The notes under the pieces were generated by a model. It ran no database searches. It was given only the letters and a program-made list of their open reading frames with translations, and was not told the DNA's origin. DNA of 64,000 nucleotides from an uncultured Candidatus Micrarchaeota archaeon. GTDB taxonomy: Archaea; Micrarchaeota; Micrarchaeia; Micrarchaeales; Micrarchaeaceae. Location: contig CAVUGN010000001.1 in NCBI GenBank assembly GCA_963741095.1, positions 32,001 through 96,000 on the forward strand, read 5' to 3'. This document shows positions 36,885 to 44,334 of the stretch, piece after piece (position 1 is the first letter of the stretch; each line of letters starts with the position of its first letter). A program made the position numbers and the translations under genes.

Positions 36885-39557
36885 TCACGCCTTTGCCTCA
36901 AGTCTTCCTTCCGCTATCCTCTTTGAACCGCCGCCCTTGAATGCCATGTCTTGCCTCTTTGCCTCCTCTTTTGCGAATTCGAGCGCGTCCTCTTCGGATT
37001 CGCTACCGGAGACTGCGACTACTTCCGAACGCTTGTTGTAGAGCAGTATTGCCCCCTTAGGCTTCGCGTCAGCGAATTTCGTTGCTATCTTCCTGAGCAG
37101 ACTCCTCTCGTAGTCGAGCTCTTTGACTAGCTCGTCGTCGCGCTCCTCGGCTAGCTCCTTTGCGATGTAGCCGCTGAGCTGGTCCTCCATAGACTCATAG
37201 CTGTATTTGTACAATCCCAGTTCCTTCATCTTTGCTGACAGCCCCGGTTCCAGCTTATCCCTGTCGACTCCGGTAAGCTTCGCAAGGTTGTCTATGCTGT
37301 GCTCCATGCCTATCACGTGCTCCAGCGCAGCCGGACCCGCCACGAACTCTATCCTGTTTATCCCGTCATGGATTCTCGATGAGCGTATTATTTTTATTAT
37401 GCCTATTTCTGATTCCTTGCCGCCGAGATGGAGGCCTCCACAAGCCTCAGCGTCTATGAGGTTGCCCTTCAGGTCCCTTATCTGGATTATCCTGAGCTTC
37501 CCAGACGGGGTGCCGTGGCCCTGGTAGATTGAGAAGCCGAACTTCGCTTCCGCCTCCTTCCGGTCCATCTCCTCTGCGCTGACCTTTATGCCATTCATTA
37601 TGTACGAATTTGCCTTGCTCTCTATCTCCTCGATCTGCTTGTCGCTAAGCTTCTCGTAGTGCGCTATGTCTATGTGGGCTTTGTCGTAGGATTTCTTCGC
37701 CCCTTCCTGCCAGGCGTGCTTGCCCAAAACGGCTCTTGCCGCTGCGCTGACCAGGTGCGTTGCCGTGTGATGCGCCACCAGCCTCATTCTGCGTTCTCCG
37801 TCAATTATGCAATGGACTGACTGGCCCTTCTTGAACGGCGCGGGCTTGACCAGAGTGTGCACTATGACACCGCCGGTGCTCTGTACGTCCTTGACACCGA
37901 CGCCCTCTATTGAACCGGTATCCGCTTCCTGGCCTCCGCTCTCAGCATAGAACGGCGTCCTGTCCAATACGACCATGTTGCCCGAAACGAGCAGCACCTT
38001 GGAATCTGATTCATGAACATCGCTATAGAACAGCTTGGTTGTAGAGGGGATACCGGTGACATCGATGCCGGCGACCTTTGGTTCCTTTCTCTTCTCTGTG
38101 AAATCTCCCTTGACGAGCTCGTTGTATGATTGTTCAGGTATGTCGATCTTTACCTTCTTCGATTCTGCTATGGATTTTATGAAATCTGGCGTAATGCCGT
38201 TGCTTTCGTACAAAGTCCTCACGCGCTCCGGAGTCAATGGCTCATGCTTCTCTATGACCATGTTGACTATCTTCTGCGCCGCTGCCTTGCTGTTCTCGTA
38301 TCTCTTCCTTTCCACTTCGATAACGTCGTTTATCTCGTTCAGGCTCTCGCCCACATGGCTGTAGAGCCCCGAGAGATCTTTGGAGTGCATCTCGATTATT
38401 TTCATGAGGTCCATGTTCAACCCGTACTGGCTGGCGAGGTCGAATATCCTTCTGAGTATGATTCGCAGGTTGTAGCCCCCTCCGACATTGCTCGGCAGCG
38501 CGCCGTCGCTTATCGCGAACAGCAGCGTCCTCGTGTGGTCGGCTATCGCGTACGCGGCCTGCATCGGCTTTATTACATTCATGTAATCGCTTTCCGACAT
38601 GCCTGCCTTCTGCAGCAGCTTCTTCTCGAACGCATCGATGTCAGACATCTCGTCCATGTTCATGAGGCCGAAGCTGCCCGCTATCTTTGAATACGCCTTA
38701 ACGTCATGCTTGATGCCGGTGCTGTGGTGTATGTAGTCTAGCTCCTTCTTGAAGACCGCATCGTAAGCGGTTTGCGTGCCGCAGTGGTACCACAGTAGAC
38801 GTTCGAAGCCCCAGCCCACGTCCACGACCTTGCTGCTGAGCTCCCTTGTCTTGCCGTTGAAGTACTCGAACTGCGTGAAAACGTTGTTGCCAAGCTCCAG
38901 CCCTTTCGAAAAGAACTCCAGGCTGGGGCCGAATTCAGAGAAGTCGCCCATGGCCCAGACGTCCTCGATGTAAGTCATATCCTTCTTGTCGATTCCCAGC
39001 ACCTCCGTAAGGAACTTGAAATTCAATTCGATGGTCCGATCGCGCCAGTACCCCTCCTTGGGGTAGTTGAACACCGTCTGATTGGCCATCATGAACGAGG
39101 TGAAGTGACGGCCGGTGATGCCGACGTTGGATATGTCGTTGAAGCGCATGCATATCTGCGGCACGACAAGCGGATTGGCTGGGTACTCGAAATTCATCTT
39201 CCCACCCTCTATGCGCTGGAAGTCCTGTATGCCGGCGATCGTAAAGTAAAGATCCTGCCTCCACCTGCTGACGACCGGATAGCTGTCAACGATCGCATGG
39301 CCTTCCTTCTTGAAGAAATTGGAGAACTTGTTCCAGAATTCGATGTATTCTACGCTCTTCGGCTTATCCTTTATGAAGGAGTATGGCTCATGCGCTGGGT
39401 CGCCGCAAAGTTCCCTTTCATTGTCGACGGTCCAGAAGCTCTTCCCGCACAGTTTGCACGTCTTCCTCTCGAATCCCTCTTTCTTGAACGTCTCCGTTAC
39501 GTAGTACTTGTTGGGCGTCTTGGAAAATTCGCTCCTCAGTTGCTCTTTGTTAAGCAT
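36885..39557 (-). CDS. alaS: Alanyl-tRNA synthetase (archaeal type)
   Basis: YPVVSRWR, VPQICMRFNDI, GRHFTSFMM, VDVGWGFERL, IADHTRT, editing motif HHTATH...EACGG, and C-terminal GGGS. Confidence 0.97.
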   Translation of the reverse strand: MLNKEQLRSEFSKTPNKYYVTETFKKEGFERKTCKLCGKSFWTVDNERELCGDPAHEPYSFIKDKPKSVEYIEFWNKFSNFFKKEGHAIVDSYPVVSRWRQDLYFTIAGIQDFQRIEGGKMNFEYPANPLVVPQICMRFNDISNVGITGRHFTSFMMANQTVFNYPKEGYWRDRTIELNFKFLTEVLGIDKKDMTYIEDVWAMGDFSEFGPSLEFFSKGLELGNNVFTQFEYFNGKTRELSSKVVDVGWGFERLLWYHCGTQTAYDAVFKKELDYIHHSTGIKHDVKAYSKIAGSFGLMNMDEMSDIDAFEKKLLQKAGMSESDYMNVIKPMQAAYAIADHTRTLLFAISDGALPSNVGGGYNLRIILRRIFDLASQYGLNMDLMKIIEMHSKDLSGLYSHVGESLNEINDVIEVERKRYENSKAAAQKIVNMVIEKHEPLTPERVRTLYESNGITPDFIKSIAESKKVKIDIPEQSYNELVKGDFTEKRKEPKVAGIDVTGIPSTTKLFYSDVHESDSKVLLVSGNMVVLDRTPFYAESGGQEADTGSIEGVGVKDVQSTGGVIVHTLVKPAPFKKGQSVHCIIDGERRMRLVAHHTATHLVSAAARAVLGKHAWQEGAKKSYDKAHIDIAHYEKLSDKQIEEIESKANSYIMNGIKVSAEEMDRKEAEAKFGFSIYQGHGTPSGKLRIIQIRDLKGNLIDAEACGGLHLGGKESEIGIIKIIRSSRIHDGINRIEFVAGPAALEHVIGMEHSIDNLAKLTGVDRDKLEPGLSAKMKELGLYKYSYESMEDQLSGYIAKELAEERDDELVKELDYERSLLRKIATKFADAKPKGAILLYNKRSEVVAVSGSESEEDALEFAKEEAKRQDMAFKGGGSKRIAEGRLEAKA

Positions 39558-40442
39558 TCAAAGCACGCTTTGCGGCCACCACACCTTGCATTCCTTGCCG
39601 TAGAATGCACAGTATGAGCATTTCCATTTCTCTTCCTCTGGCACGGGCAGCGATTTTCTTTCGCCGCTCCAATATTTCATAATATACTTTATTATGTCTT
39701 GCATCTCCTTCGGATCGTAATCGAACTTGTGGAGGTCTATCTCCTTGCCAGTGAACTGGTCTATGTACTTTATGCAGAGCATGTCGCTTACGGTGCCGAT
39801 GCTCTTGAATTCCTGGAAGAAGCGGCCTGCGATTGAGTTTATGTTTTGTATCGGCTTCTCAACGCCAATCGCGTCAAGTTGCCTTATGAACTCCGGGGTA
39901 AGCTTCATCAGGGTGGTGTGGTAGGCATTGGTGAAGTTGGTCACAGCGTATTCGCCGCTCACTATGTCATCGACAAGCTTCTTGTAGACCATTATCTGCA
40001 CGCGGTGGGTGGTTATCTGCGAGCTTGACGGTATCTTGTTGTTGGCCCTTGTTTTATCCTCAAAAATGAGGACTTTCCCGTCCTTTATGTCTAGTTGGTC
40101 GATTTTGCCGACAACTTTGTAGCCTGATATTGAGCCATAGAGCTGCACCTCTCGCGTTTTCTTGTTCTTCTTCAGGGCGCAGAGCGCCATGTAGCTGGTG
40201 TAAAGGCTCTTGTAGAGGAAGTCGGCATAGCCGGTGGGCTGCAGTATGATAGGAACATTGACCTCGCCCTCAAGCTCCTCGTGAAGCGAGGTCCCAGCCT
40301 TTATCGCTGCGGTTATCTTCTTGCCGTACCTATAGTTATACTCCATCTGCCGTTCGCACCAGTACTGCGACGCTATGTCCGAGACGCGGATGCTGGTTTT
40401 GTGCAGTTCCTCCATTATGCTCAAGTTTACACCTTGCTTCAC
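39558..40442 (-). CDS. Solo Cas4/Exonuclease V-like PD-(D/E)xK nuclease with 4Fe-4S ligands
   Basis: SQYWCE, GTSLHEEL, GKID, FEDKT, QIMVY and C-terminal KCSYCAFYGKEC. Confidence 0.8.
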   Translation of the reverse strand: MKQGVNLSIMEELHKTSIRVSDIASQYWCERQMEYNYRYGKKITAAIKAGTSLHEELEGEVNVPIILQPTGYADFLYKSLYTSYMALCALKKNKKTREVQLYGSISGYKVVGKIDQLDIKDGKVLIFEDKTRANNKIPSSSQITTHRVQIMVYKKLVDDIVSGEYAVTNFTNAYHTTLMKLTPEFIRQLDAIGVEKPIQNINSIAGRFFQEFKSIGTVSDMLCIKYIDQFTGKEIDLHKFDYDPKEMQDIIKYIMKYWSGERKSLPVPEEEKWKCSYCAFYGKECKVWWPQSVL

Positions 40443-40523
40443 ATAACGTGCTTAATGATTATAAATATCGTTGTTAACACGTTGCTACAGAAGGCGTTTA
40501 AAGCTTTCCAGAGAAGGTGATGC

Positions 40524-40687
40524 AGTGAGATTATGAAAGGAGGAACTGGAGATGGAAACTAGTGGTTGAGATTATGGGAGACGGAATGTAGTTATGTGGT
40601 ACGTACAAGATTGTACGTGTTTGTGTGCAACTACAAAAGGCATTTAAAGGTTGCTAGAGAAGTTTGGATAGTGAGATTATGGAAGGA
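40524..40687. repeat. Three copies of TGAGATTATG(R)NGA and an intervening long hairpin
   Basis: AGTGAGATTATGAAAGGA (40524-40541), TGAGATTATGGGAGA (40567-40581) and AGTGAGATTATGGAAGGA (40670-40687). Hairpin at 40587-40635. Confidence 0.65.
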
Positions 40688-40724
40688 TCGTGCGGTTGAT
40701 AGGGATAATAGTTTTCGTGTTTGT

Positions 40725-42161
40725 CTAATTCTTAATGTCAGCATTTTTATTGTTTGATATTCTTTCTGTTTTATCATAATTGTGTTGTGGTATTTCTTTT
40801 ACACCGTGGTCTCTGATCAATATTTTGTATTGATTGGTGTAGGTTTTGTCGAATATTCTATGGCAAACTGCACCACATAATACGTCTGTAGCCACAAGCG
40901 AATTTATTGCAGTTCCGGCAACACTTTTTTGTAATGATTCTTCAATTCCATTAAGGTTTTCAGTGGCATAAACGCTATGTATAAATACTACCCCGTCTGG
41001 AATTCCTGAATCGGCTACCAAAGCATATTTATCGACACCAAGGGGGTTTTTCTTGAGTATATCTAGCATTAGTTCACGCCTTGACTCGGCAAATTTTTTA
41101 CTATCGAGTTTACTCATTGTTATCAAAGCTAAATATTTCGTTGGGAGTTTGTTCATCGTAATAGTTATCCGTTTTATTATCCCGTCGTCTTTTAGCCTGT
41201 GGTAAACATATCCCGCGCCTTCGCCTCCGAATGCGTATTTTTTATCTATTTCTGAGAATTCTTTGACACCATTTCTGCTAAGTTCCATCAACACATAATA
41301 CTGTTTTTGGGTCAATTGACCTGGAAGTCGTTGAAGATTATCTTTTGTTTTAATCCAAATTTTATCTTTTAAAAGTTCGAAGAACTTTTCTCTAATTGGG
41401 AAACAGCCATAACCCATATACAGGGGGGATATATACCATGTCGAAGGGTAGGTACGAAGAACTTCGTGATTTCTCAGTCGATATACAAAATCTGCTGCGA
41501 TATCATTGTTTTCGGCTAGAAAATGTATTACTAAATCATACATTCCTACAGTAGCAATCGAAAATTGCACTCTCGGCTCATTTTCTAGAATTGCTTTGAG
41601 TTGATCTATCGGAGGTTTTTCGTTACCAAATTTGATTAATGCCATATAGTTGAGGTAGCCAAGTTTGCCCACATCCAACTCTGCAAAATATCTTATCCCG
41701 TATTTTTGTTCCAACTGCTTGACATGCGAATACACCGTAGAGCCCTTGAGCTTTAATTGTTGGCCCCAGTATGAGAGGTCAGCTTTAGCATTCATGCTTA
41801 ATACTGTTAAGAGCATCTTGTCCACTTCGTCAGGCATTATTGCCTGTTCTTCGATGAAATGGACTGCTGTTTGACCGTTATGCGGTAGCTCTACTTTGCC
41901 ACCATGTGCTACGATAAGTGATTCTGCCTTTTCTAATTCAGTTTGTATCTGTTCGGATTTTTTGACGAAGATACCTTCTTTGGTTATTTTGCCGAGGTAA
42001 TTTGAGATAATTCGTTGGCGTTTGTTTATTTTATCCCATTCGCCTTTCTCTTTATAGACGTAGAAATACTTTCCTCTTATGACTTTGAGTGCGATATAGA
42101 ATGAACTTTCTTTCTTCATCTTTTGAAATGTTTCTACAACGCTTCGCGGGACATATTGCAT
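40725..42161 (-). CDS. AT-rich tandem Lrp/AsnC-like regulator (2x wHTH + RAM) with N-terminal transposase-like beta domain
   Basis: 'DEVDKMLLTVLSMNAKADLS...STVYSHVKQLEQ' with RAM-like 'GMYDLVIHF', and a second module 'QYYVLMELSRNG...YVYHRLKDDGIIKR'. N-terminal 'YFYVYKEKGEWDKINKRQRIISNYLGKIT'. Confidence 0.7.
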   Translation of the reverse strand: MQYVPRSVVETFQKMKKESSFYIALKVIRGKYFYVYKEKGEWDKINKRQRIISNYLGKITKEGIFVKKSEQIQTELEKAESLIVAHGGKVELPHNGQTAVHFIEEQAIMPDEVDKMLLTVLSMNAKADLSYWGQQLKLKGSTVYSHVKQLEQKYGIRYFAELDVGKLGYLNYMALIKFGNEKPPIDQLKAILENEPRVQFSIATVGMYDLVIHFLAENNDIAADFVYRLRNHEVLRTYPSTWYISPLYMGYGCFPIREKFFELLKDKIWIKTKDNLQRLPGQLTQKQYYVLMELSRNGVKEFSEIDKKYAFGGEGAGYVYHRLKDDGIIKRITITMNKLPTKYLALITMSKLDSKKFAESRRELMLDILKKNPLGVDKYALVADSGIPDGVVFIHSVYATENLNGIEESLQKSVAGTAINSLVATDVLCGAVCHRIFDKTYTNQYKILIRDHGVKEIPQHNYDKTERISNNKNADIKN

Positions 42162-42345
42162 ACTATAACTAACAACTTATATAATATTTAAATACTTCCT
42201 TTTTTACAACGTTTAATTCTTATCGAACAACGTATATGAATAACTAATATTTGTATATTATGAAGGATTTTTTAGATATTTCGAGATAAAATAAGAAAAT
42301 TTACCTTGCGCATAGATAAATACAACAAAGTTCATAATATCATAC

Positions 42346-42516
42346 GGGTGGAATTGTGGAGGATATGGGTCTTCGAGGGAAGTCCTTTGAAGGGAGAAGC
42401 GGCGCTATTTCATATAAGGCTGTTTTCAACCATTCTTACCACACACTGGAAGACGGCACTAAGGAATTGAGATGCACAGCTTGTTTTGTCTTTTTCCCTA
42501 CTCCGCGATTCCACCC
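42346..42516 (+). other. Long-range RNA stem (16 bp including 2 G-U) enclosing ~140 nt; candidate structured leader or ncRNA
   Basis: GGGTGGAATTGTGGAG (42346-42361) pairs with CTCCGCGATTCCACCC (42501-42516). The two non-Watson-Crick positions are G-U only on the + strand. Confidence 0.55.
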
Positions 42517-42535
42517 TTTCCCTATCCAGAACTGA
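42365..42535 (+). CDS. Small ORF, 56 aa (MGLRGKSFEG...HSYH...CTAC...PIQN)
   Basis: ATG preceded by GGAGG. Contains HxxH and CxxC. Below the ORF-track cutoff. Confidence 0.35.
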   Translation: MGLRGKSFEGRSGAISYKAVFNHSYHTLEDGTKELRCTACFVFFPTPRFHPFPIQN

Positions 42536-42539
42536 TCCT

Positions 42540-42632
42540 ATGATGATGACTCACCTGCATTTTGCGTTTTTTGTCCTTTCGGTTATTGCAATAATAGCGG
42601 CTGTAGCAATCATTGCGGTGAATGTGATATGA
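42540..42632 (+). CDS. 30-aa single-TM hydrophobic peptide (MMMTHLHFAFFVLSVIAIIAAVAIIAVNVI)
   Basis: Uninterrupted hydrophobic stretch. The stop overlaps the next gene's start (ATGA). Confidence 0.5.
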   Translation: MMMTHLHFAFFVLSVIAIIAAVAIIAVNVI

Positions 42633-42895
42633 ACAACAAAGTAAGAAGGAACGCGATGCACAAATTCTATTTCATAAAACCAAGATTGAACGTGAATGCT
42701 GAGGAGCTCGCCCTCAAGCTGATAGGACTGAAGCACGTTGACGGCGTATTCCTGACAGAAGGGGAGTACGGCTTCATGGTGAAGGCGAGGGTTTCCGGAA
42801 TAAACGGGACGGAGAACGTCGCGGATTACATATCGAAGAGCATGGGCAGCAAGTACGGCGAGGTAACAAGCTATTTCGAGTACAGGAAAAGGTAA
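42629..42895 (+). CDS. Stand-alone Lrp/AsnC ligand-binding (RAM)-like protein
   Basis: 'FYFIKP...EELALKLIGLKHVDGVFLTEGEYGFMVKA' fits the ferredoxin-like RAM pattern (VxEVxxxxGxYD). No HTH. Confidence 0.6.
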   Translation: MNNKVRRNAMHKFYFIKPRLNVNAEELALKLIGLKHVDGVFLTEGEYGFMVKARVSGINGTENVADYISKSMGSKYGEVTSYFEYRKR

Positions 42896-42932
42896 TCACT
42901 TCTTCTTGATGCGCTTCGTCGCTAAATACCGT

Positions 42933-43562
42933 TCACATAGACTTTTTTATCTCTTCCATATACCTATGTTTGAGTTTGGAGAAGCTATTCTCGTTCAGGT
43001 TCAGGTAATTGAGGTTCCTTCTGTCGAAGTTGACAAGAGTCGATAGCAGGACGTCCATATACGGTAAAAGTTTGTATTCCAGGAGCACCTTTTTCAGGTT
43101 GGATATGCTCAATCCGGAGTAAAATAGCAGTCCGAGTATGTCTATCGCATCCTTTTCGCCTTTTGCGCTCTTGCCCCGGTCTAGCGCCGCGCCGAGCTTC
43201 AGTGCCGTAAGCACTTCGGCGGTGGGCACGCAAAATCCTTCAATGCTGGTGGAGTATTTTGAGAGTATGTCCTTTGGAGGTATTGGAAGGATGGAATAGT
43301 TTGGCAGGTATATGTCAACGTCGTATAGATTCATCTTGATTTCGTATTTTTTTAGCCGATCGTTCTTGTTCAGCGGGTACCTGCTTCCGAGATCCCTTAG
43401 CGCATCGTAGTCCAGTATTATGTCGATGTCTTTTGATTTCTGCAGCCTGGAGTAGAGGTAGACCGCCCACCCGCCGATGAGCACGAATTTTATCTCCTTG
43501 CTTAAGTCCTGCAACCCGCGCCAGCTCGCCTCGATCACCTCGCTGTTCCAGAAGTTGGTCAT
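42933..43562 (-). CDS. AbiEii-like nucleotidyltransferase (putative type IV toxin)
   Basis: FVLIGGWAV, SKDIDII, LKLGA and KGEKDAID. ATGA-coupled to the upstream wHTH gene. Confidence 0.7.
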   Translation of the reverse strand: MTNFWNSEVIEASWRGLQDLSKEIKFVLIGGWAVYLYSRLQKSKDIDIILDYDALRDLGSRYPLNKNDRLKKYEIKMNLYDVDIYLPNYSILPIPPKDILSKYSTSIEGFCVPTAEVLTALKLGAALDRGKSAKGEKDAIDILGLLFYSGLSISNLKKVLLEYKLLPYMDVLLSTLVNFDRRNLNYLNLNENSFSKLKHRYMEEIKKSM

Positions 43563-44164
43563 ATTCCCAGCCTGCGCGCTAGCGCTTCGACAAAGTCTTT
43601 TGCGTACCATTGGTTCATGTTCCAGAGGTCGACAAAGAGTTGTGCAGCACACACCGATGAACCTTTGAGATTGTGGCCTTCTATGGCCTTTTCCATGTTG
43701 CCGTCACAACGAAGCACTATGAGGTTTGGTACCATATCGCTTGTCTCGAACCTCCTCTTTATCTCTTTCAGTCCCGTCTCGGTTGCGTACAGGTACACCT
43801 CGCTGTAATCCGCTGGAGTCTCTTTGAAAAGGAACCGGTAAGCGGTATAGCCGGTAAACGCAACGCCATCAGGCATGCCCTTTTCTATATCCTTGACTGG
43901 CGCGCTGACTCGGGTCTGATAAACGATGTCCTTCTTCAGGTTCCTGTGAGTGGCCCAGTACATCAAAAGCCGGTCCAGAGCTATGACTTCGAAGGACCGC
44001 GGCTTCACTCGCACCGCATTTATGCCCTTGAGGTCGGTCACCGCGCCATTGATTATGCTAAGCGATGTGCCGAGCTCCCTTGACAGCGCAAGCTGCGTAA
44101 AACTTCTTTTGCCCTCGATGTAGCCGCAGGCTATCGCCCTGAACACCGTTTCCCGCTTGTTCAT
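43559..44164 (-). CDS. wHTH + AbiEi-like C-terminal domain protein (putative antitoxin/autoregulator)
   Basis: 'FTQLALSRELGTSLSIINGAVTDLK' HTH, then LLMYWA, AFTGYTAY and QLFVDLW. Confidence 0.68.
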   Translation of the reverse strand: MNKRETVFRAIACGYIEGKRSFTQLALSRELGTSLSIINGAVTDLKGINAVRVKPRSFEVIALDRLLMYWATHRNLKKDIVYQTRVSAPVKDIEKGMPDGVAFTGYTAYRFLFKETPADYSEVYLYATETGLKEIKRRFETSDMVPNLIVLRCDGNMEKAIEGHNLKGSSVCAAQLFVDLWNMNQWYAKDFVEALARRLGI

Positions 44165-44334
44165 GTTTCTATTTATGAGATAGGGTATATTTATATGTTT
44201 CTATTATTGTAGAAAGATATAAGTATAGGGTGATGAGAAAGATGAAAGAGGGCCGAGGATTATTGGACCATAGACCTTCGCCCTGTTTTCTTCAAAAGAG
44301 CAAAGGGATGATGCGCGAGCTTTATTCCGTGATT

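Follow-up and report, generated by a model that had tools for sequence, protein, structure and literature searches.

A probable autoregulated double-Lrp cassette with a folded leader RNA and a RAM-only co-regulator in a Micrarchaeota archaeon

In this work we analyzed positions 40443-42895 of a 64,000-nt stretch of DNA from an uncultured Candidatus Micrarchaeota archaeon (contig CAVUGN010000001.1); the whole stretch is referred to as the window, and all positions are numbered on it. The minus strand of this region encodes a protein of 478 amino acids (aa) with two Lrp/AsnC units in one chain. Opposite to it lies a predicted operon composed of a 171-nt folded leader, a 30-aa membrane peptide and a translationally coupled protein that is a stand-alone RAM domain (RAM-only protein). 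We read the locus, with a probability of roughly 60%, as a lineage-specific, autoregulated cassette for transcription regulation in a small archaeon of the DPANN type, with the RAM-only protein as co-regulator. A preliminary description of the same DNA had proposed an undescribed regulatory, signalling or defence unit. A conserved unit of double Lrp, leader RNA, small open reading frames (ORFs) and RAM-only protein was indeed found, whereas the suggested role in defence found no support (no PADLOC match for five proteins). The individual parts that had been listed, namely the 478-aa ORF, a 16-bp long-range stem, a 56-aa ORF, the micropeptide with its ATGA-coupled RAM-only neighbour and repeats on the far side of the Lrp gene, are all present at the positions given below.

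The double-Lrp ORF (40725-42161, minus strand) was characterized by homolog searches, AlphaFold2 and Foldseek. AlphaFold2, supplied with 55 aligned members of the family, returned a model with a predicted local distance difference test score (pLDDT) of 89.2. In this model, an alpha+beta N-terminal domain consisting of a helix and a sheet (residues 1-67) and a disordered linker (69-104) are followed by two units, each of a winged helix-turn-helix (wHTH) and a RAM domain (wHTH 105-154 and RAM 156-252; wHTH 285-325 and RAM 329-430). The top Foldseek match in the PDB was the fused double-Lrp protein NirDL (4ch7; E 2.4e-11, 360 aligned columns, 13% identity, root-mean-square deviation (rmsd) 11.8), followed by many single Lrp/FFRP structures with E-values of 1.6e-5 and weaker and target TM-scores of 0.65-0.78. 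Thus, the earlier assignment of a doubled wHTH-RAM build is correct, and according to the model the protein is an intramolecular "dimer" with an additional N-terminal domain. Sequence searches gave LysM (E 8.1e-9, 35.4 bits vs a curated cut-off of 180) and LrpA (E 2.6e-5) in NCBIfam, both far below their equivalog cut-offs, and PH1519 in the PDB (E 6.5e-5, residues 107-225). Together these Lrp matches cover residues ~107-241, and many homologs of the double Lrp carry PF13404/PF13412/PF01037. The sequence matches support membership in the Lrp/AsnC superfamily, not equivalence to any named regulator.

The homolog family comprises 62 clusters of 349-539 aa with 29-44% identity, and its source names are mostly those of Micrarchaeota AsnC regulators. 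Since alignments to these homologs span 94-99% of the 478 residues, the long form is taken as the real one. The homologs of the RAM-only gene likewise cover its longer, 88-aa form, and the annotated starts of both genes are therefore probably too late; the forms stored in the collection are shorter, with 363 aa for the Lrp (presumably the gene call) and 79 aa for the RAM-only protein. The N-terminal domain was also modelled alone (pLDDT 79.1). Among 12 members it gave no credible Pfam match at E<=1 (best 0.021), there was no Foldseek match at E<=0.001 (best E 0.096), and the best VIA Z was 4.7. In the Atlas it fell into unnamed clusters; the nearest named ones lie at a sub-threshold 0.76, and one of these is transposase-associated, which is a lead only. 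Thus, the transposase-like N-terminus assumed previously is unsupported. A second, shorter family with frames of ~340-400 aa occurs in many related genomes (e.g. G032:C1:673842-674489 and G028:C2:253645-254289) and matches only residues ~110-350 of the double Lrp; it may represent another fused HTH-RAM architecture.

On the plus strand, a structured leader RNA of 171 nt (42346-42516) is predicted from folding and covariation. Its closing stem of 16 bp, two of them G-U pairs, is formed by GGGTGGAATTGTGGAG (42346-42361) and CTCCGCGATTCCACCC (42501-42516). The minimum free energy is -65.9 kcal/mol (z -4.71; 0/200 shuffles), and for the minus strand z is -2.05. A hairpin loop of ~20 nt with the sequence AACCATTCTTACCACACACT (~42428-42448) shows 1-2 differences among otherwise diverged copies. 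The same closing stem and the hairpin with the near-constant loop were found in all six copies of this leader type, i.e. in the window, the same-genus ortholog G001:C41, the metagenome contig L073, C5c, C5d and G001:C47. For the 53 pairs predicted in the four full-length copies, 92.9% of the cells are paired vs 47-56% when slid, and 10 compensatory pairs were counted vs 0-3 when slid and 4.2 +/- 1.6 when shuffled (0/500). A metagenome scan with the RAM-only protein yielded one locus, and the covariation set is therefore small. An alignment of type II/III leaders (eight copies) also shows a consistent fold, with compensatory changes in 2/32 pairs because these copies are too alike. Rfam gave no match in the window at gathering score and none at E<=1 in 40300-43100, and the tRNA scan was empty. 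G099 and G142 also gave DNA matches to the loop, but these fall within unrelated coding sequence and were dropped. The leader harbours the 56-codon ORF (ORF56; 42365-42535, plus strand), and the region may act as RNA, as protein or as both.

The leader loop is in addition complementary (12 bp, one bulge) to GTGGTAGAATGG, which in six sister cassettes (compared in G000:C5, C10 and C11) forms the ribosome-binding/start region of the first ORF. This may point to regulation in trans, or the two sequences may go back to a shared ancestor through an inversion. The complement of the loop 13-mer (<=1 edit) has 11 matches in the genome: three are the opposite strand of loops, six belong to one repeated element and two lie elsewhere. 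Since the six share one repeated element and a rough chance expectation is ~3, we count the loop complement as one event and treat it as a lead only.

The leader is followed by the hydrophobic, single-transmembrane (TM)-like micropeptide (30 aa, 42540-42632, plus strand), identified from its ORF and its counterparts. Its stop codon overlaps the start of the RAM-only gene (88 aa, 42629-42895, plus strand) in the sequence ATGA. Counterparts of the peptide are encoded in G001, on L073, in the paralogous cassette C5c of the same genome and in genus g8, and DNA matches to the peptide region also occur in L026-L028 and L030. Substitutions in the peptide ORF are distributed over the codon positions as 10/9/14, indicating weak constraint. 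The RAM-only protein has 11 homolog clusters. When compared with the PDB, a profile built from 19 of its sequences matched the RAM domain of PH1519 (residues 67-125 of 151; E 1.1e-4) as well as the stand-alone RAM chains 2djw, 2e1a/2cvi and 2zbc at E 0.015-0.036, and all 12 matches of the profile were Lrp/AsnC proteins. In five other genomes from two families, a RAM-only homolog is present at 9/19 full-length loci, each time upstream of the Lrp gene and divergent from it. The window's own genome has such a homolog at 4/12 loci and a related 88-aa "C" protein, which aligns weakly with the RAM-only family, at four more. The order in genus g8 is TATA, TTCATAA, GGGTGG leader, 35-aa TM peptide and RAM-only gene; in other genera, a zinc finger or other small ORFs precede the RAM gene. 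A complex prediction for residues 105-465 of the double Lrp with two RAM-only copies scored 0.01 vs a mark of 0.32 and is evidence neither way.

The two transcription units are separated by a divergent control region (42162-42345), which was delineated by sequence reading and promoter comparison. The Lrp gene on the minus strand has the TATA box TTTAAATA (~42186-42193) 25-32 nt ahead of its ATG, which suggests a leaderless Lrp mRNA. For the plus-strand operon, a divergent TATA box was read at ~42316-42324, and the box TTCATAATATCA (42331-42342) is located between it and the putative transcription start at 42346. A second box, in inverted orientation, is found at 42255-42264, 76 bp from the promoter box. 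A TTAAATAT-type TATA box ~30 nt ahead of the ATG is shared by 12/12 paralogs of the Lrp gene in this genome, and nearly all of them have a common core ~150-190 nt upstream. Read on the opposite strand, this core consists of a TATA box, the TTCATAATATCA box and then GGGTGG, which is likely the start of the divergent transcript. The 12-mer TGA[GT]ATTATG[AG][AG] has 10 exact matches genome-wide, all of them beside paralogs, either at ~-170 on the sense strand or, inverted, right after the stop codon. The 10-mer WKATTATGRR occurs eight times in the window vs 1.58 +/- 1.12 expected (0/100 shuffles), and five of these copies, within 40528-42340, lie around the Lrp gene on both sides. Promoter-core DNA also precedes homologs from three other genera, at a distance of ~155-160 nt; the search tally of 16/201 genomes includes the unpublished G078, and no claim is based on it.

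The 3' flank of the Lrp gene (40443-40724) contains two copies of a ~65-nt element (40485-40541 and 40631-40687), three ATTATGRR boxes (40526-40537, 40567-40578 and 40672-40683) that form a triple 12-mer, and a small hairpin (~40600-40620). One to three copies of the element follow the stop codon of every one of the 12 paralogs. In sense orientation the element looks like the Lrp promoter (AAAAGG-N-TTAAATAG). In the opposite orientation it shows a TATA-like box, a Shine-Dalgarno-like motif (GGTGA/GTGAG) and a tiny glycine-rich open frame of 5-14 codons (MKGGTGDGN in the window, MDGGGQGGG elsewhere); glycine-rich mini-ORFs in this flank lie on the plus strand at 40533-40562, 40574-40591 and 40679-40699.

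The cassette is one of many. With 1.08 Mb in 11 contigs and a completeness of 94%, the genome encodes 12 full-length Lrp paralogs with identities of 29.7-45.4% (mean 35.6%, 66 pairs); the GC content is below 0.48 in 10 of them, and the GC content at third codon positions (GC3) ranges from 0.35 to 0.82. The upstream 900 nt, in contrast, are 67-91% identical at DNA level between copies and occur in this genome solely beside the paralogs. By these comparisons, the flanks are conserved, and it is the Lrp gene between them that varies and is rich in AT. The operons differ in type. The window and C5c share the long leader, the 30-aa TM peptide and the ATGA-coupled RAM-only gene, C5d has a shorter version of this leader and a different small ORF, and the remaining operons start with another leader of 124 nt. 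The latter is followed by a C2HC-type 65-aa ORF or a 62-aa ORF and then by zinc ribbons, RAM-only proteins or the "C" protein. On L073, the leader and TM-peptide DNA are ~80% identical to the window and the RAM protein 80%, but the Lrp just 40% over 193 aa; around the divergent TATA box and the promoter core the likeness to the window tapers off. In a maximum-likelihood tree of all 12 paralogs, Lrps with different upstream types are united at 98-99% support and the two TM/RAM cassettes are separated. Thus, judged from the exchanged Lrp on L073 and the mismatch between tree and flanks, the regulator gene and its flanks have different histories, and the gene looks exchangeable between conserved flanks. 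Six of the twelve cassettes are located in one 24-kb stretch on one strand (G000:C11:34771-58025); two of these six have upstream regions 90% identical over 728 nt, yet their Lrps are not sisters in the tree.

Matches to the family were obtained in 38/41 related genomes, many of which have several full-length copies, with the most in this genome. Leader, peptide and RAM gene are kept in the same-genus ortholog and on the metagenome contig; thus, the flanking elements, on whose conservation the preliminary description hinged, are conserved among homologs. In the partly available literature on Micrarchaeota Lrp and DPANN AsnC proteins (including PMC5498576), nothing on this double-Lrp family was found.

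Regarding the setting of the locus, the window has an archaeal look, and the minus-strand genes for AlaRS (36885-39557) and Exo5, a PD-(D/E)XK nuclease (39558-40442), lie on the low-coordinate side of the Lrp gene. On the other side lie a VTT/DedA gene and then a gene for a likely Pelota homolog. In other genera, Exo5 and VTT are less than 1.2 kb apart at 7/12 loci (2-190 nt in six of these seven), with Pelota next within the locus in three of the seven, and at the remaining five VTT is not found within 1.5 kb of Exo5. This adjacency argues that 40443-44334 (3.9 kb) is an insertion between the Exo5 and VTT/DedA genes; direct repeats were searched for at its borders and none were found. In another genus, L062 (G012:C43:12456-16325) carries a different insert of ~1.1 kb at the Exo5-VTT junction, and the intergenic site may therefore be a recurrent insertion point. 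The GC content is 0.31-0.41 across 40400-42399 vs ~0.47-0.57 on both sides (400-nt windows). GC3 is 0.35 for the double Lrp, 0.69-0.72 for AlaRS, Exo5 and Pelota, and 0.70 for the RAM-only gene. Of the AT-rich block with deviant codon usage proposed earlier, the low GC content thus stands, but the aberrant composition reaches no further than the Lrp gene and the sequence right next to it.

The insertion also contains a DUF6036 nucleotidyltransferase (NTase) gene (42933-43652, minus strand; 26.7 bits vs a Pfam cut-off of 23.6) and an overlapping ORF of 201 aa (43559-44164, minus strand). The NTase is also encoded on L073 at 94% aa identity. This pair had been called an AbiE-like toxin-antitoxin system and counted as part of the unit. 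Neither is supported: AbiEii stays below its cut-off (15.3 vs 22.5 bits), the partner has no Pfam match at E<=0.1, and PADLOC matched neither protein. The same-genus genome lacks the NTase pair; its genes run Lrp, leader, RAM, VTT, Pelota, and the RAM gene abuts VTT. On this gene order the pair is therefore a separate, later insertion outside the Lrp/RAM unit.

A hallmark of Lrp/AsnC proteins is a dimer-to-octamer assembly that is modulated by amino-acid effectors. By analogy to such regulators, the double Lrp would bind the putative ATTATGRR boxes, one between the divergent TATA box and start, one inverted and three past the gene, and in this way set its own promoter as well as the divergent one. 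The RAM-only protein would bind a small ligand and join, or compete in, the RAM-mediated assembly of the regulator, similar to FL11/DM1 of Pyrococcus. The closing stem of the leader covers the region right before the first start codon and could gate downstream translation, and the conserved flanks would allow Lrp variants to be exchanged by recombination. According to a review (PMC2995911), Lrp proteins bind imperfect inverted repeats of 13-17 bp, often at their own promoter, and stand-alone RAM proteins exist, with FL11 and DM1 forming a hetero-octamer in vitro. The same review calls the physiological significance of stand-alone RAM proteins unclear.

Several points weigh against this regulatory reading. 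Control of the peptide by the double Lrp, modulation of the latter by the RAM-only protein and binding to the boxes are steps that we infer by analogy. In five other genomes, the promoter box (<=2 mismatches) is present at 2/18 loci and the 3' element at 0/18, so that at DNA level the boxes are not general. The strong divergence of the paralogs despite a common box also fits poorly with paralog-specific operators. As to the proteins, Pfam gave no match to the 478-aa protein at E<=0.1, the RAM-only sequence alone reached only E 0.035 (14.4 bits vs a cut-off of 25), and an hhalign comparison of the RAM-only profile with the double Lrp was weak (probability 20%). Of the 10/19 loci without a RAM-only match by this profile, four belong to G010, an AT-rich genome, and six lie elsewhere. 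For the leader, three of the four sequences in the covariation set are close and the structure was derived from these same sequences. Furthermore, the variable sites of ORF56 are distributed over the codon positions as 7/12/21, a hint that part of the leader may be coding.

Taken further, this hint leads to the view that the 171-nt region is mainly a protein gene, whose 56-aa product would have AVFNHSYHTLE as its conserved core and end in a hydrophobic tail, and that the stem is secondary. The frame is open over its full 56 codons in 4/4 full-length leader copies and also open in the two short ones, and a chi-square calculated by hand for the codon positions is ~7.6 (p ~0.02). Against it, the GC content by codon position is flat (0.46/0.47/0.47) compared with a GC3 of 0.62-0.72 in real genes here, pN/pS is 0.52 with similar values in the other frames (0.60-0.85), compensatory changes in the stem alter encoded residues, and neither Pfam nor NCBIfam gave a match. 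We therefore regard a pure protein gene as possible but as the less probable view of this region. Starting from the peptide instead, the unit could be a module similar to type I toxins, in which the membrane peptide is a harmful output silenced by the folded leader, with Lrp and RAM as accessories. A small, strongly hydrophobic peptide is present in 5/5 cassettes of this type from two genera, the leader is very stable and has a long-range stem, and its near-constant loop is a possible pairing site with complements at the start regions of the first ORFs of six other cassettes. This idea is nevertheless improbable: the TM peptide occurs in just 2/12 cassettes of this genome, the others having zinc-finger or soluble small ORFs, the RAM-like partner is more constant than the peptide, no antisense RNA gene was identified, and the codon-position counts of the peptide ORF point to weak constraint. 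The peptide is also translationally coupled to a regulator-type protein, an unusual layout for type I toxins.

For the cassette as a whole, a mobile or exchangeable variable-gene cassette serving conflict (defence, exclusion, host-symbiont or strain rivalry) was considered, with the conserved flanks and their inverted 12-mers as recombination sites and AT-rich Lrps brought in by horizontal transfer and swapped. Such an origin would agree with the insertion seen from the Exo5-VTT distances, the GC3 of the Lrp gene (0.35 vs ~0.70 in neighbours) and its spread among the paralogs, the swapped Lrp on L073, the decoupling of Lrp tree and flank type, the inverted boxes bracketing the gene and the cluster of six copies on one contig. 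The cassette, however, contains no integrase, transposase or nuclease by ORF list and Pfam, PADLOC is empty, and the insertion borders lack direct repeats. The copies have all diverged and each is an intact ORF, which gives no sign of recent movement, and the near-universal presence in the order is what is expected for a core regulator family. Conflict as the function thus appears rather unlikely. Similarly speculative is the idea of a network in which all twelve cassettes recombine and cross-talk: the conserved flanks (promoter core and 3' element, with their inverted 12-mers) would be the sites at which foreign AT-rich double-Lrp alleles are swapped in and out, and the leader loop would act in trans on the complementary ribosome-binding/start regions of sister cassettes, i.e. 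a shufflon-like, RNA-linked system in genome-reduced symbiotic archaea. Finally, NirDL as top structural match over 360 columns would suggest a siroheme decarboxylase of the NirDL/AhbAB type rather than a DNA-binding regulator. With 13% identity and an rmsd of 11.8, 12 paralogs in a 1.08-Mb genome, each next to small ORFs of regulator type, no haem-pathway genes among the neighbours read (AlaRS, Exo5, NTase, VTT, Pelota), sequence matches to DNA-binding Lrp regulators, and a conserved divergent promoter and RAM-only partner that suit a regulator, an enzyme of this kind is hardly credible.

Overall, we therefore favour the autoregulated Lrp cassette. Recognisable regulators are few in genome-reduced DPANN archaea, and here one fused Lrp family accounts for twelve loci of a 1.08-Mb genome. 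If our reading is true, this family would be a main regulatory system of these uncultivated symbionts, and it would provide a natural single-chain Lrp dimer for structural work as well as a genomic setting for asking what stand-alone RAM proteins do. For a family of transcription factors, swapping the regulator gene while its flanks stay conserved would be an unusual evolutionary route.

When compared with known systems, type I toxin-antitoxin modules share with the cassette a hydrophobic peptide of ~30 aa behind a leader with long-range 5'-3' pairing. They differ in that here no antisense RNA was identified and the peptide is coupled to the RAM gene and absent from most sister cassettes. The siroheme decarboxylases NirDL and AhbA-AhbB have in common with the double Lrp the fused Lrp-like fold in one chain; unlike them, it combines low identity (13%) and neighbours outside the haem pathway with twelve paralogs, regulator-type divergent promoters and a RAM-only partner. 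By size and profile, the 88-aa protein fits the stand-alone RAM proteins of the DM1/STS042 type (~75-95 aa, no HTH). Another likeness is that to FL11 (PH1519)/DM1 of Pyrococcus, for which a hetero-assembly of full-length Lrp and RAM-only protein is reported in the review (PMC2995911), a text that uses neither "tandem" nor "fused". The wHTH and RAM units are alike in sequence and fold, and the 88-aa partner resembles PH1519 in its RAM domain, with weaker matches to solved stand-alone RAM proteins (E 0.015-0.036). Unlike FL11/DM1, the Micrarchaeota system has two Lrp units in one chain together with an extra N-terminal domain without a recognised fold. Its RAM-only gene has a set place in a divergent operon, after a folded leader and a micropeptide, and the whole unit is multiplied 12-fold with Lrp genes that appear to be exchangeable.

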